Part shown: positions 1,178-27,065 of the stretch, one piece after another
Layout of the letters: each line of letters begins with the position of its first letter
How positions within the stretch are numbered: position 1 is the stretch's first letter
Sequence record: OZ035739.1
Length of the DNA stretch: 39,836 nucleotides
From: Kayfunavirus AN24P4
Reading direction: 5' to 3' (one strand)
Made by a program: the position numbers and the translations under genes
Notes under the pieces: generated by a model
Databases searched by the model: none
What the model was told of the DNA's origin: nothing
What the model saw: only the letters and a program-made list of their open reading frames with translations

Positions 1178-2936
1178 GAAAACACCTGCTGAAAGACAGG
1201 CAGAAATGACCAAAAGGATGAGGGATGACTTCGTGTTCTTCATCTTCGTTCTATGGAAAGCTCTGAGCCTTCCTGTTCCAACACGCTGCCAGATAGATAT
1301 GTGTAAGAAGCTGGCGGCTGGAGATAATCGCCGCTTCATCCTTCAAGCATTCCGTGGTATTGGAAAGTCGTTCCTGACCTGTGGTTTCGTGGTCTGGAAG
1401 TTATGGAATAACCCGGACTTGAAGTTCATGATTGTGTCGGCCTCAAAGGAACGAGCCGATGCGAACTCCATCTTCATCAAGCGAATCATCGACCTAATGC
1501 CTCAGCTTCAGGACCTCAAACCTAAGCAGGGACAGCGAGATGCGGTTATCAGCTTCGACGTTGGGCCAGCAAAGCCAGACCACTCACCTTCTGTTAAGTC
1601 CGTTGGTATCACTGGTCAGTTGACTGGTAGTCGTGCTGACATCCTGATTGCAGATGACGTGGAGGTTCCTAATAACTCTGCGACTCAGGCTGCACGAGAC
1701 CGTCTGTCAGAGCTTGTTAAAGAGTTCGACGCTATCCTGAAGCCGGGAGGTACAATCATCTATCTGGGTACTCCTCAGAACGAGATGACCCTGTATCGTG
1801 AGCTTGAAGGTCGTGGGTATACCACTACTATCTGGCCAGCTCGTTATCCACGCGACAGGAAGGACTGGCAGTCTTACGGCGACCGTCTGGCTCCTATGCT
1901 TCAGGCAGAGCTGGAAGAGGACCCTGAGTCCTTCTACTGGCGTCCGACTGATGAAGTACGCTTCGATGATACGGACCTGAAGGAACGTGAGCTGTCCTAC
2001 GGTAAAGCTGGCTTCGCTCTACAGTTCATGCTTAACCCGAACCTGAGTGATGCCGAGAAGTACCCTCTTAAGCTCCGTGACCTTATCGTAGCCGACTTGG
2101 ACCCAGCGTCCAGCCCAATGGTCTACCAATGGTTGCCGAACCCTCAGAACAAGCGTGAGGACGTTCCTAACGTTGGACTCATGGGTGACTCGTACCACAC
2201 GTATCAGACTGTAGGTTCTGCCTTCAGCTCATACACCCAGAAGATTCTGGTCATTGACCCTAGTGGTCGTGGTAAGGATGAAACTGGATATGCGGTACTG
2301 TACCAGCTCAACGGCTACATCTTCGCTATGGAAGTTGGTGGCATGCGTGGTGGTTATGAAGACTCTACGCTGGAAGCCTTGGCTAAGATTGGTCGTAAGT
2401 GGAGGGTCAACGAATACGTCATTGAGGGTAACTTCGGTGATGGTATGTACCTTGAGCTATTCAAGCCTGTAGCGGCCCGTATCCATCCTGCGGCTGTAAC
2501 TGAAGTGAAGAGTAAGGGTCAGAAAGAACTACGCATCTGTGACGTTCTGGAGCCTATCATGGGGTCTCACAGACTTATCGTTAACGCTGCTGCTATCGTC
2601 CAAGACTACCAGACAGCCTCTGACAAGGATGGTGTTCGTAACCCTATCTACTCTCTATTCTATCAGATGACACGTATCTCTCGTGAGCGTGGAGCCTTGG
2701 CACACGATGACCGACTTGATGCGCTGGCTATCGGTGTACAGTTCTTCGTTGAGTCGATGGCTAAGGATGCCAACAAAGGCGAACGTGAAGTCACTGAGGA
2801 ATGGCTGGAGGAACAGATGGAGAACCCACGGAAAGGCTTCGAGTCCATCCACACTGAGTTCTGGGACAATGGGGTCCGGGTAACTCACGATACGGACGAC
2901 GAGCTTGGACTAGGGTCATACGTTACGTTCCACTAG
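1167..2936 (+). CDS. large terminase subunit / DNA maturase B (T7 gp19-like)
   Basis: 589-aa ORF, GTG start after aaggagg; extensive collinear similarity to T7 gp19 ([48 protein letters not shown]). Confidence 0.95.
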
Positions 2937-24675: not shown

Positions 24676-24698
24676 ACTAAACTATCACTATAGGGAGA
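24676..24698 (+). promoter_or_regulatory. phage RNAP promoter (phi10-like), closest to full consensus
   Basis: actaaactatcactataGGGAGAcc; +1 about 24693; drives the major capsid gene. Confidence 0.8.
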
Positions 24699-24800
24699 CC
24701 AAGAGACAGATTCAAGGTTTCCCTATTACTTCAGTCCATACGGATTGGGCGTACAGTAAGTAATAAACTTTATCTTTCAATTTAATAGGAGAATTATCAT

Positions 24801-25850
24801 ATGGCAAACGTTCCGGGTCAGAAAATTGGTACAGACCAAGGTAAAGGCAAATCCAGTTCCGACGCTCTGGCGTTGTTCCTGAAGGTATTTGCTGGTGAAG
24901 TCCTGACCGCATTCACTCGCCGCTCTGTAACTGCTGACAAGCATATTGTCCGTACCATTCAGAACGGTAAGTCTGCTCAGTTCCCGGTCATGGGTCGCAC
25001 ATCTGGTGTGTATCTGGCTCCTGGTGAGCGACTGTCCGATAAGCGTAAAGGTATCAAACATACCGAGAAAGTGATTACCATTGACGGTCTGCTGACTGCC
25101 GATGTGATGATTTTCGACATTGAAGACGCGATGAACCACTATGACGTGGCTGGCGAGTACTCCAACCAGTTGGGTGAGGCTCTGGCTATCGCTGCTGATG
25201 GTGCGGTTCTGGCTGAAATGGCTCTCCTGTGCAACCTCCCGGCTGCATCCAACGAGAACATTGCCGGTCTGGGCACTGCGTCAGTACTTGAAGTTGGTAC
25301 TAAAACCGACCTGAACACTCCGGCTAAGCTGGGCGAAGCAATCATCGGTCAACTGACCATTGCTCGTGCGAAGCTGACCTCCAACTACGTTCCTGCTGGC
25401 GACCGTTACTTCTACACCACGCCGGACAACTACTCTGCAATCCTCGCGGCTCTGATGCCGAACGCTGCTAACTATGCTGCGCTGATTGACCCAGAGACTG
25501 GTAACATCCGTAACGTGATGGGCTTCGTTGTTGTTGAAGTCCCGCATCTGGTACAGGGTGGCGCTGGTGAGACTCGTGGTGACGATGGCATCTCTATCGC
25601 TTCCGGTCAGAAACACGCATTCCCGGCAACTGCTACTGGCGACGTTAAAGTTGCTATGAACAACGTTGTGGGTCTGTTCTCTCACCGTTCTGCTGTGGGT
25701 ACTGTGAAGCTGCGTGACTTGGCGCTGGAACGTGACCGCGACGTCGATGCTCAGGGCGACCTGATTGTTGGTAAGTATGCTATGGGTCACGGTGGTCTGC
25801 GTCCTGAAGCAGCGGGCGCACTGGTTTTCACAGCAGCGTCAGCGGGTTAA
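24801..25850 (+). CDS. major capsid protein 10A (T7 gp10A-like)
   Basis: 349 aa; near-collinear with T7 gp10A (LALFLKVF.GEVLTAF.R.SVT, SAQFPV.GRT, KHTEKVITIDGLLTADV.I.DIEDAMNHYDV, NVMGF.VVEVPHL, GTVKLRDLALER, KYAMGHGGLRPEAAGA). Confidence 0.97.
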   Translation: MANVPGQKIGTDQGKGKSSSDALALFLKVFAGEVLTAFTRRSVTADKHIVRTIQNGKSAQFPVMGRTSGVYLAPGERLSDKRKGIKHTEKVITIDGLLTADVMIFDIEDAMNHYDVAGEYSNQLGEALAIAADGAVLAEMALLCNLPAASNENIAGLGTASVLEVGTKTDLNTPAKLGEAIIGQLTIARAKLTSNYVPAGDRYFYTTPDNYSAILAALMPNAANYAALIDPETGNIRNVMGFVVVEVPHLVQGGAGETRGDDGISIASGQKHAFPATATGDVKVAMNNVVGLFSHRSAVGTVKLRDLALERDRDVDAQGDLIVGKYAMGHGGLRPEAAGALVFTAASAG

Positions 25851-26113
25851 CGACCTTTAAGGCCCTCTCTACCGAGGGTCCTACCTTAGAGACGTATAGT
25901 TCTACGGTGGGGACCAGCCTGAAGGTTGACTTCCCTGAGCTTTCAGATGTGACCGATTGGTCGCTGCTTGAGGTGACTACGCCTGATGGTGTTAGCTACT
26001 CCCGTAGAACCAACAGTCTCTACTTCAAGGCCACCTCTGGCGTGGAAGGTCTGGTGATTGTTGGGTATGACGGTTCGCCTGTGCGTTCCTTCAACGTATC
26101 TTTCACAAACTAA
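25823..26113 (+). CDS. predicted capsid 10B C-terminal extension reached by -1 ribosomal frameshift
   Basis: Slippery heptamer G GTT TTC at 25823-25829 near the end of 10A; the -1 frame is open from 25808 to 26113 and ends 4 nt before the Tphi-like terminator; the ORF track shows its distal part as 25907..26113. Confidence 0.55.
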   Translation, partial: GFHSSVSGLTTFKALSTEGPTLETYSSTVGTSLKVDFPELSDVTDWSLLEVTTPDGVSYSRRTNSLYFKATSGVEGLVIVGYDGSPVRSFNVSFTN

Positions 26114-26116
26114 TTG

Positions 26117-26157
26117 AAACCCCTTGGGTGCCTTCGGGTGCTTGAGGGGTTTTTTGC
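26117..26157 (+). terminator. Tphi-like transcription terminator after the capsid gene
   Basis: aaaccccttgggtgccttcgggtgcttgaggggttttttg closely resembles T7 Tphi (aaccccttgggg...cttgaggggttttttg): GC-rich hairpin plus T6 run. Confidence 0.75.
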
Positions 26158-26271
26158 TTAAGGAGGGACTATGGTCCTTATTTACACAGGGTTAGCACTA
26201 TTCGTCTTATTCTGGGCGTACCTGCTGTCCAGCTCACCGTCTAGCGCCTATGACCGTTAAGGAGTAAACCT

Positions 26272-26838
26272 ATGGCTCAATACATTCCACTGAATGCTAA
26301 CGATGACTTAGACGCCATCAACGATATGTTAGCTGCTATCGGTGAACCAGCAGTCCTACAGCTTGACGAGGGGAACGCTGACGTATCGAACGCTCAACGT
26401 ATCCTGCATCGTGTCAATCGTCAGGTCCAAGCTAAAGGATGGAACTTTAACATTAATGAAGCTGCTGTCCTGACACCTGATGTCCAAGACAACAGGATTC
26501 GATTCTTGCCGTCATACCTTCGTGTAATGACCGCTGGGGCCACCAGCTACTACAGCAACATGGGTGGATACCTGTACGACCTGTCCACTCAGTCCACCAC
26601 TTTCACCGACCCTATCATGGTAGAGCTTGTGGAGATGAAGCCATTCTCCGAGATGCCTGTGGTCTTCAGGGACTACATCGTCACTAAAGCTAGCCGTGAG
26701 TTCAACGCTAAGTTCTTCGGTAGCCCAGAGTCTGAACTGTACCTTCGTGAGCAGGAAGCAGAACTCTATCAGCAGGTCATGGAATACGAGATGGACACTG
26801 GTCGCTACAACATGATGTCCGACATCGGGAGGGACTAA
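26272..26838 (+). CDS. tail tubular protein A (T7 gp11-like)
   Basis: 188 aa; IN.MLAAIGEP.V..L.EGNADV.NA.RIL..VNRQ.QAKGWNFNI.E, GGY.YD...QS, YEMD.G.YNM resemble T7 gp11. Confidence 0.93.
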   Translation: MAQYIPLNANDDLDAINDMLAAIGEPAVLQLDEGNADVSNAQRILHRVNRQVQAKGWNFNINEAAVLTPDVQDNRIRFLPSYLRVMTAGATSYYSNMGGYLYDLSTQSTTFTDPIMVELVEMKPFSEMPVVFRDYIVTKASREFNAKFFGSPESELYLREQEAELYQQVMEYEMDTGRYNMMSDIGRD

Positions 26839-27065
26839 TGGCTAGTCACAACCTGAAGATTCACCGCCAGCACTTTGGTCCGGTACAACTAGGTCTAAAG
26901 ACAGCAGAGCTGAGACTTAACGACCGGGACTTTAAGGTTGGCGACTGGCTTATCCTGAATGAGTGGGACAACGGGTATACTGGACAACAGGTAGCACGTA
27001 AGGTTGTCCACATTGCTGACGTTGGTGACATCGCTGAGGGATACGTCCTAATGAGTATGATTTAA
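26838..27065 (+). CDS. small DUF3850/ASCH-like (PUA-fold) protein inserted between tail tubular genes
   Basis: 75 aa, start overlaps gp11 stop (TAATG), RBS gggaggg; HxLKIxxxxFxPVxxGxKTxELRxNDRDFxVGDxLxLxEW...YTG pattern typical of the small ASCH-like family; no equivalent gene in canonical T7. Confidence 0.6.
   Translation: MASHNLKIHRQHFGPVQLGLKTAELRLNDRDFKVGDWLILNEWDNGYTGQQVARKVVHIADVGDIAEGYVLMSMI

Follow-up and report, generated by a model that had tools for sequence, protein, structure and literature searches.

A predicted −1 frameshift in gene 10 of Kayfunavirus AN24P4 that would add an Ig-like domain to a minor capsid protein

Gene 10 of Kayfunavirus AN24P4 very probably encodes two capsid proteins from a single start. 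The reading favored here, to which a probability of roughly 0.85 is given from sequence comparison, is that a 437-amino acid protein, 10B, is made through a −1 slip of the ribosome at the heptamer G GUU UUC and that an Ig-like domain is displayed by a fraction of the capsid subunits. The DNA analyzed is the whole of sequence record OZ035739.1 (39,836 nucleotides), referred to below as the window. Its source is a K1F-like Kayfunavirus of the T7 family. The long 10B arrangement is real and is not new in kind; it is already annotated in close relatives.

Gene 10 and its shifted reading frame

All features described here lie on the + strand. On the 5′ side of gene 10, at 24685..24698, there is a putative promoter core for the phage RNA polymerase, the equivalent of phi10 (TCACTATAGGGAGA, a perfect match), which we take to resemble the T7 promoter consensus. 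When up to two mismatches are allowed, the motif has five matches in the whole window, where 0.36 would be expected, and all five are on the + strand. Gene 10A, the gene of the major capsid protein, occupies 24801..25850 as an open reading frame (ORF) of 349 amino acids (36.4 kDa). The product is a Gp10A-like capsid protein of the HK97 fold (Pfam PF21703, E = 4.5e-104), and at the nucleotide level the gene is 95–96% identical to Kayfunavirus capsid genes. The Shine–Dalgarno (SD) pairing at its start amounts to −7.3 kcal/mol.

An open −1 frame runs from 25808 to 26113, as an earlier sequence-only reading had stated, giving 101 codons and a stop, with a TGA upstream at 25805. The next longest open run in the −1 frame within gene 10 is 47 codons. 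The 10B-specific coding sequence would occupy 25829..26113 (94 codons and TAA), and the earlier estimate of about 95 added residues is borne out by a count of 94, all following Phe343. The predicted 437-residue product (46.0 kDa) reads ...AAGALVF up to the shift and HSSVSGLTTFK...NVSFTN beyond it, and consists of 343 residues of 10A, a flexible linker of ~16 residues and an Ig-like beta-sandwich of ~75 residues. The tryptic peptide spanning the shift in 10B is predicted to be YAMGHGGLRPEAAGALVFHSSVSGLTTFK, those of the extension would run from ALSTEGPTLETYSSTVGTSLK onward, and the C-terminal peptide of 10A would be YAMGHGGLRPEAAGALVFTAASAG.

The proposed shift site, a slippery heptamer reading G GTT TTC, occupies 25823..25829, and the 0-frame codons across it are CTG (25821), GTT (25824) and TTC (25827). 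It had been placed nine codons before the 10A stop. The heptamer and its position stand, and the codon that contributes the first G (CTG) is the ninth, but TTC is seven codons before the TAA at 25848..25850. Its description as an X XXY YYZ site is right as to register and too generous as to fit, because re-pairing in the P site from GUU to GGU is imperfect. The same heptamer occurs in gene 10 of T7 and K1F, in the same register and behind a matching peptide ...GA(L/V)VF. In the case of T7, the G_GU-type heptamer is accepted as a −1 site and the shift has been mapped to it (PMC5009743), with 10B arising in about 10% of translations (PMC1635266). The T7 shift work (Condron, Atkins and Gesteland 1991) is taken here via these two reviews.

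There is one copy of GGTTTTC in the window, against 4.1 expected by chance, and the heptamer by itself is not improbable. What goes beyond chance is its register, position and conservation, taken jointly with the long −1 ORF. Among the first 24 loci compared, the site reads GGTTTTC in 22, AGTTTTC in one and CGTTTTC in one; in the KP32 set it reads GGTTTTC in 40 and CGTTTTC in three, and the register is unchanged in both groups. As the first triplet is imperfect, and degenerates in relatives to A GUU UUC or C GUU UUC, the efficiency of the shift could be low.

The proposed route of expression would start from a gene 10 mRNA that spans the region from the phi10-like promoter to a Tphi-like terminator. 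The majority of ribosomes would stay in frame to the TAA at 25848 and produce 10A. A minority would slip by −1 at 25823..25829, with the P-site tRNA-Val now paired to GGU instead of GUU and the A-site tRNA-Phe to UUU instead of UUC, and would continue through CAC AGC AGC to the TAA at 26111, yielding the minor capsid protein 10B. We infer that 10B is incorporated into the virion by co-assembly with 10A and that some capsid subunits thus bear the domain on the outer surface, an external location suggested by the display of GFP and of adhesins at the 10B C-terminus of K1F. Such a surface domain would most likely let the virion adhere weakly to carbohydrate or other surfaces, a function that we infer entirely by analogy with what has been proposed for other phage Ig-like domains. 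Virion proteomics of the phages SH3 and SH4, which used a predicted-ORF database, lists the major capsid protein and no long 10B (PMC4925675).

Conservation of the extension and other routes to its expression

The −1 relation behind xGTTTTC is kept in all 24 of the relatives first examined, and in at least five genera. The comparison covered Kayfunavirus, KP32-type Przondovirus, Ningirsuvirus JA10 and a Pektosvirus, with Caroctavirus CR8 added afterwards. Among the relatives, the 10A tail past the site is 3–7 codons long and the extension 91–103 amino acids. Since these lengths vary and the −1 frame is nonetheless kept, every indel must have been a multiple of three.

The conservation of the site also bears on whether the domain is reached through some other event near the 10A stop, such as P-site slippage at GGU UAA (25845..25850), termination followed by reinitiation, or transcriptional slippage of the phage RNA polymerase at the run of T residues. 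A −1 event anywhere in 25808..25850 would give a product of almost equal size, and reinitiation is conceivable in the phages LS2, RDN8.1, PE3-1 and TH20 because a TAATG stop–start overlap there gives an 87-amino acid ORF. The window, however, reads TAACG, a stop without an overlapping start codon. Slippage at GGU UAA was rejected because its context is not conserved among relatives, which have GGC TAA, GTC TAA, CCG TAA or GCC TAA, whereas TTTTC is universal. Transcriptional slippage is known from runs far longer than four T residues, and the run here is too short by that standard. With the T7 shift mapped to the same heptamer (PMC5009743), an event of any of these kinds is considered improbable as the source of the domain in the window.

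The −1 slip at the heptamer is further consistent with the pattern of substitution. Summed pairwise comparisons, drawn from only 16 related window-type sequences, give a pN/pS of 0.24 over the whole extension in the −1 frame, against 1.36–1.59 in the other two frames. The −1 frame value is 0.21 in the 18 codons from the 10A stop to a GTG at 25907 and 0.25 downstream, while the other two frames give 1.16–1.56 in those two segments. Judged by these ratios, purifying selection in the −1 frame reaches upstream of the sole candidate start codon.

The extension opens with a flexible linker (residues 1–16, 25829..25876; AlphaFold2 pLDDT <50), the start of which overlaps the last seven codons of 10A in a different frame. 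The length and sequence of this linker differ between lineages. Residues 20–94 (25886..26110) are confidently predicted to form an Ig-like beta-sandwich of seven strands, and profile matches to BACON, He_PIG and Big_1 repeat proteins corroborate the fold. No relative of the extension was found by sequence among solved structures, no Pfam family matched it at E values up to 1, and there was no detectable sequence relation to the Big_2 extension of T3 (hhalign probability 0.5%). It thus falls outside the recognized Ig-like sequence families (Big_2, I-set, FN3 and the like) and matches only phrog_7473, a family of “unknown function” (E = 3.4e-37). The predicted fold would add another sequence-orphan family to the known frameshift-appended phage Ig-like domains, a class covered by a review (PMC5009743) and exemplified by T3 10B.

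Most GenBank records treat the extension as an independent 68-amino acid protein that starts at GTG 25907. The mechanical ORF does exist (25907..26113), and this part of the extension is annotated separately by gene callers; automated pipelines list the fragment in many relatives as “hypothetical protein” or “major head protein”, and PHROGs keeps it as its own family, phrog_7473. The sequence-only reading had seen no convincing ribosome binding site before the GTG, and the anti-SD pairing of −2.9 kcal/mol agrees with this. The value lies at the 48th percentile of all positions, which is background, and neighboring late genes reach −7.3 to −13.4 kcal/mol. There is no ATG, GTG or TTG in the −1 frame from 25808 to 25906, and both the homology and the same-frame selection reach upstream of the GTG, the latter through 18 codons of this stretch. 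In the AlphaFold2 model the first beta-strand comprises extension residues 21–26 and the GTG corresponds to residue 27, and a protein begun there would lack that strand. The starts called in homologues are scattered rather than conserved (products of 49–87 amino acids), and an independent gene would have no need for a fixed −1 relation to 10A across repeated indels. A separate protein is therefore very improbable, and the 68-amino acid ORF is judged to be an annotation artefact. The earlier preference for frameshifting over an independent gene gains support from the conservation of frame and site, the selection upstream of the GTG, the lack of SD pairing and a domain that starts before the GTG.

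It is scarcely credible, finally, that the −1 ORF is what is left, silent or in decay, of a cassette once picked up by recombination, with 10A as the sole product. In favor of this, the extension is swappable, as the same flanks enclose a short T7-like tail in K1F and other Kayfunaviruses, the distal half of the domain has gone from one IMG/VR genome (L014), and T7 10B is dispensable. Against it, the pN/pS is 0.24 across the entire extension and the fold is confidently predicted. Among 454 phage records with homologues of the extension, the domain is intact in 349 (coverage of at least 80%), and conserved residues persist at identities as low as 41%.

RNA structure downstream of the shift site

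The frame entered by a −1 slip at G GUU UUC ends just before a Tphi-like intrinsic terminator at 26116..26153 (GAAACCCCTTGGGTGCC TTCG GGTGCTTGAGGGGTTTT and a T-run; dG −25.2 kcal/mol, z −4.7). A hairpin of this type had been proposed 4 nt past the extension stop. The hairpin itself is present, but its start is 2 nt past the stop and that of its CCCC/GC core 6 nt past it. K1F and CR8 have a near-identical terminator sequence after the 10B stop, and T7 has the AACCCCTTGGGG motif there; the terminator of the window likewise bears AACCCC. It has been reported for T7 that the CCCC in the Tphi terminator is necessary for efficient frameshifting (PMC5009743). The duplex energy between the 28 nt past the heptamer and the 5′ arm of Tphi was no better than that of shuffled sequences in the window, T7, K1F, CR8, KP32, LS2 and a Pektosvirus; a fraction of 0.19–0.81 of the shuffles did equally well or better.

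The region 25830..25900, which had been put forward as the place of a possible stimulatory structure, folds unremarkably (z −1.3). The folds of 25830..25900, 25830..25930 and 25835..25880 have z values of −1.3 to −1.6, and there is nothing at the canonical spacing of 5–9 nt past the site. Locally, just one structure stands out: an mRNA hairpin at 25855..25891 (dG −15.0 kcal/mol, z −2.4), a candidate cis-element whose start is 26 nt past the heptamer and 5 nt past the 10A stop. Its outer stem pairs 25855–25862 with 25884–25891, its inner stem pairs 25863–25867 with 25874–25878, and its block-level rank within gene 10 is 0.068. Across eight window-type sequences 94% of cells are paired, and the covariation consists of a single double-change pair, which 39–51 of 500 shuffles equal.

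In the KP32-type phages (21 distinct sequences), the counterpart position holds a 16-bp hairpin with 97.9% pairing, in which compensatory double changes swap two pairs and alter the encoded amino acids. Other lineages have sequence-unrelated hairpins in the equivalent place, about 22–62 nt past the heptamer. T3 has no comparable hairpin at +10..+60, the only one being at +62 (block rank 0.09), so that gene 10 frameshifting does not invariably go with such a hairpin.

It is conceivable, albeit doubtful, that the recurring hairpin is maintained by selection as a cis-element and tunes recoding in gene 10, for instance by setting the 10A:10B ratio or by influencing what becomes of ribosomes at the 10A stop. 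Support is strongest in the KP32-type phages and weak for the hairpin of the window. If the suggestion is true, the hairpin would act as a stimulator of an unconventional kind, at a distant spacing, and might bear on the need of T7 gene 10 frameshifting for sequences far from the shift site. The stimulation of frameshifting in T7 gene 10 is still listed as unexplained (PMC5009743). The hairpin is a side result that may be new, and a conserved hairpin past the site is the sole element here that could lead to something new.

Comparison with known gene 10 systems

T7 resembles the window in its homologous capsid gene, in the identical heptamer a few codons before the 10A stop, and in a −1 extension that ends just before the Tphi terminator with its AACCCC motif. 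It differs in the shifted part, which in T7 comprises 56 residues without a Pfam match and of unrelated sequence, whereas that of the window comprises 94 residues with a predicted Ig-like domain. The sequence-only reading had compared the extension with about 50 residues for T7 10B; it is indeed the longer of the two, but its length is not unusual for the family, as the 433-amino acid 10B of T3 has ~89 shifted residues. The distance from the shift site to the terminator CCCC is ~290 nt here versus ~180 nt as measured in T7, for which “over 200” has been given (PMC5009743).

T3 gp10B is likewise a capsid protein made through a −1 shift, with one Ig-like domain of comparable size at its C-terminus (433 versus 437 amino acids in total). 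In T3, however, the slip site lies in a CCCAAAG region without TTTTC, the domain is a Pfam Big_2 domain (E = 4.5e-10), whereas that of the window has no Pfam match, and the terminator is located ~160 nt past the 10B stop. A role in adhesion, to surfaces or to mucin, has been discussed for the T3 10B domain (bioRxiv 10.64898/2026.06.25.734500).

The arrangement has been annotated in three relatives. Escherichia phage Peacock (MK903279), with 95.5% nucleotide identity over the region, has a joined 437-amino acid coding sequence (CDS) named “minor capsid protein”. Citrobacter phage CR8 (NC_023548) has a 430-amino acid gp10B described as “predicted translation by a −1 internal frameshift”. Its 10B extension is 51% identical to that of the window (E = 3e-27). 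The CR8 gp10B record also reads “matches in mass spectrometry analysis”, without specifying there whether extension or junction peptides are meant, and the CR8 genome announcement makes no mention of mass spectrometry of the long 10B. In Escherichia phage PE3-1, the gp10A note states that it “may be translated via slippery sequence”. These three differ from the window in strain-level sequence only, and their records describe neither the fold of the extension nor the downstream hairpin. The annotation of the present genome should accordingly hold a joined 437-amino acid “minor capsid protein 10B” CDS in place of a 68-amino acid hypothetical protein. Most of the 454 phage records with the domain mis-call it as a small separate ORF and need the same change.

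K1F, the type Kayfunavirus, shares both the heptamer and the Tphi sequence directly past the 10B stop, and differs in having a short T7-like tail in place of the Ig-like domain; 44 added triplets have been reported for its 10B (PMC6277420). K1F with GFP fused to the C-terminus of 10B is stably maintained as a fluorescent phage (PMC6277420), and Ig-like adhesins have been engineered onto the K1F 10B locus (PMC13370021). Kayfunaviruses thus serve as display and therapy scaffolds via the gene 10B locus (PMC6277420, PMC13370021), and it is therefore useful that many natural members would already show a small exchangeable Ig-like module there. The extension is a cassette that has been exchanged between conserved flanks, the heptamer on one side and Tphi on the other.

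The proposed shift site and open -1 frame of gene 10

Gene 10A, encoding the major capsid protein, occupies 24801..25850 on the + strand (349 aa; Pfam Gp10A-like, E 4.5e-104), with a putative phage-promoter core, TCACTATAGGGAGA, at 24685..24698 (+) as a perfect match. Five such sites occur in the window, all on the + strand and with at most two mismatches, against 0.36 expected. Many phages of Escherichia, Salmonella and Klebsiella that are classed as Kayfunavirus (the K1F-like part of the T7 subfamily Studiervirinae) share 95-96% identity with the window over 24700..26300.

The slippery heptamer GGTTTTC lies at 25823..25829 (+), where the sequence-only reading had placed it, in the 0-frame register CTG GTT TTC; the 10A stop codon TAA is at 25848..25850. 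The -1 frame was also correctly described as open from 25808 to 26113 (+): it runs from behind a TGA at 25805 to the TAA at 26111..26113, a total of 101 codons; all other -1 runs within the gene are of 47 codons or fewer. The reading as a T7-type programmed -1 frameshift that generates a long 10B is well supported by the comparative evidence described below. The predicted product is 343 + 94 = 437 aa (46.0 kDa, against 36.4 kDa for 10A), so the anticipated long extension stands, with 94 added residues rather than about 95. Its expected adjacency to the Tphi-like terminator hairpin at 26116..26153 (+; -25.2 kcal/mol, z -4.7, T run next) also holds, although the gap is 2 nt and not 4 nt.

Counting both strands, the window has a single GGTTTTC, that of gene 10, where dinucleotide shuffles predict 4.1 copies; 100 of 100 shuffles contained at least one. 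The presence of the heptamer alone therefore carries no weight; its significance lies in register, position and conservation. The low count may reflect avoidance of the heptamer elsewhere, for which one genome is too small a sample.

Between the terminator and gene 11 (tail tubular protein A, start 26272) resides a 29-aa hydrophobic ORF, MVLIYTGLALFVLFWAYLLSSSPSSAYDR, at 26172..26261 (+), with a strong Shine–Dalgarno (SD) sequence, AAGGAGG (-12.6 kcal/mol). It has no Pfam match. The records of some relatives list it as a hypothetical protein, and those of T7 and K1F have no annotated gene in this gap. Tail tubular genes 11 and 12 are separated by an inserted 75-aa DUF3850/ASCH-domain ORF with a good SD (26838..27065, +; Pfam E 1.9e-19). 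Several relatives possess it; no gene of this type is called or annotated there in RDN8.1 or CR8, and in KP32 the place is taken by an endonuclease VII gene.

Translation and predicted fold of the extension

An independent gene would have to begin at the GTG at 25907, the first ATG, GTG or TTG in the extension frame. At -2.9 kcal/mol, the anti-SD pairing upstream of this codon ranks at the 48th percentile among all positions; neighbouring late genes reach -7.3 to -13.4. This agrees with the earlier remark that no convincing ribosome binding site is present. Across 16 sequences of the window's type, the -1 frame has a pN/pS of 0.21 over the 18 codons from the 10A stop to the GTG and 0.25 for the remainder, while identical nucleotides in other frames give 1.16-1.56. 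The low value ahead of the GTG argues that this upstream segment is translated in the -1 frame, despite having no start codon. The preference for frameshifting over an independent gene is thus upheld by the conserved -1 frame, pN/pS and the background-level SD.

Searches of a 5.8-billion-protein collection and of a library of 1.84 billion representatives gave only homologues called as short ORFs (49-87 aa), whose starts are scattered; where assembly is complete, their contigs measure ~40 kb. No in-frame capsid fusion was seen in either collection. This is how gene callers would view a frameshift-dependent C-terminal extension.

The extension has no Pfam match but matches phrog_7473 (‘unknown function’) over residues 15-94, so that the match begins upstream of the GTG. 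In an AlphaFold2 model that draws on 20 homologues, residues 1-16 are predicted as a disordered linker and residues 21-93 as an all-beta domain of seven strands (pLDDT about 87-90), with strand 1 at residues 21-26, ahead of the GTG at residue 27. The top Foldseek match of the model in the PDB is a lambda domain, and the N4 capsid is also among the PDB matches; the single strong viral match is to Pectobacterium phage PP81, in a 76-aa ‘minor capsid protein’. The family profile also matches multi-repeat BACON, He_PIG and Big_1/invasin proteins (E 2.7e-11 to 5e-6). From the predicted model and these weak profile matches, it is concluded that the extension is probably an Ig-like beta-sandwich from a family that Pfam does not yet include.

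Conservation, cassette exchange and downstream structure

The relatives compared comprised IMG/VR loci (L005-L019), contigs encoding distant homologues (L020-L025) and the GenBank genomes of Peacock, KP32, JA10, a Pektosvirus, T7, T3, K1F, CR8, PE3-1 and TH20. Every genome with an extension homologue has it in the -1 frame of 10A, preceded by xGTTTTC in the same register. Nearly all have G as the first base; L017 has A and the JA10 group C. Extensions span 91 to 103 residues, and the 10A tails past the shift site read TAASAG, SPAAP, SLA, SQP, KAAAPQG, TAA, TSASA and TAP.

Many Kayfunavirus records match only the two flanks of 25780..26160, which indicates that the 10B extension is mosaic and an exchangeable cassette. 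In such genomes, for instance BDX03P1, PRF-SP3, FFK3 and K1F, the 10A end and terminator are matched, and the identical flanks (heptamer ... TAATTGAAACCCC) enclose a short T7-like tail.

The 10A stop, TAACG in the window, is TAATG in L022/L023 (RDN8.1), L024 (LS2), L033 (PE3-1) and L034 (TH20), where an 87-aa ORF begins on the stop codon. Termination-reinitiation could provide a second route in these phages, yielding the domain as a free protein. The RDN8.1 capsid gene (MN414250, 705..1501 of L022) appears in the public record as two Gp10A-like ORFs (153 and 111 aa), a split likely caused by a frameshift error in sequencing or assembly. One natural deletion variant, L014 (IMGVR_UViG_2974604219_000001, 1480..1779), has the first half of the Ig-like domain joined in frame to the small hydrophobic ORF, and the distal half and terminator are absent. 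This suggests either that the domain is dispensable or an assembly error.

Folding revealed no stable structure 5-9 nt past the heptamer; in 25830..25900, where a stimulatory structure was to be sought, the notable local fold is a hairpin at 25855..25891 (-15.0 kcal/mol, z -2.4). Gene 10/10B was scanned in 45-nt windows with no position picked by eye, and the windows that start +10..+40 past the heptamer were set against blocks of the same size from the rest of the gene. The share of these blocks that contain as stable a window was 0.07 for AN24P4, 0.000 in KP32, JA10 and RDN8.1, 0.04 in T7, 0.04-0.23 in the CR8-like group, 0.10 in a Pektosvirus, 0.20 in K1F and 0.82 in L017.

In the KP32-type (Przondovirus) loci (L026, L027, L036-L077), a 16-bp hairpin at +22..+60 is 97.9% paired across 21 distinct sequences. 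Two pairs are swapped by double changes, A-U to G-C in 8 sequences and C-G to U-A in 6, counts which may reflect few independent events as the sequences are related. These changes are non-synonymous in the 10B frame. None of 500 shuffles matched the observed values, and slid controls collapse. In the hairpin of the window's type, a double change is seen at a single pair, a result equalled by 39-51 of 500 shuffles. A hairpin ~22-62 nt past the slip site recurs in lineages with the Ig-like cassette, its sequence differing by lineage. Located about 5-16 nt past the 10A stop, it is too distant from the slip site for canonical stimulation. The shift-site region and the terminator were no more complementary than expected by chance.

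Relation to known frameshift systems

The domain is present in 454 of 50,697 phage records (tblastn), mainly of Klebsiella Przondovirus and Kayfunavirus, and is a hypothetical protein in most annotations. The Peacock record contains a joined 437-aa ‘minor capsid protein’, and that of PE3-1 notes the slippery sequence. The CR8 10B (430 aa), whose extension is 51% identical to the window's (E 3e-27), is recorded as ‘predicted translation by a -1 internal frameshift’ with ‘matches in mass spectrometry analysis’.

The T7 heptamer is identical, following GAVVF, and its G_GU type is on record in the review by Atkins and colleagues, as is an unexplained requirement for the terminator CCCC (PMC5009743). 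Frameshift efficiency in T7 is ~10% (PMC1635266). Its shifted-frame part has 56 residues, is unrelated in sequence, lacks a Pfam match and stops 10 nt before Tphi. The window's extension is longer, as had been proposed, but not unusually so, T3 and CR8 being comparable. K1F shares the heptamer and terminator sequence and has a short T7-like tail instead of the long extension (PMC6277420). In T3, the slip site differs, and no counterpart of the downstream hairpin was found; the extension of its 433-aa 10B is a Pfam Big_2 domain (E 4.5e-10), with no sequence relation found to the window's domain.

The probable gene 10 shift is a case of a textbook mechanism, its predicted product already annotated in close relatives. 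To this are added the predicted Ig-like fold for an unclassified domain family, evidence of mis-annotation in most database records, the apparent cassette character of the extension and a conserved hairpin downstream of the shift site.
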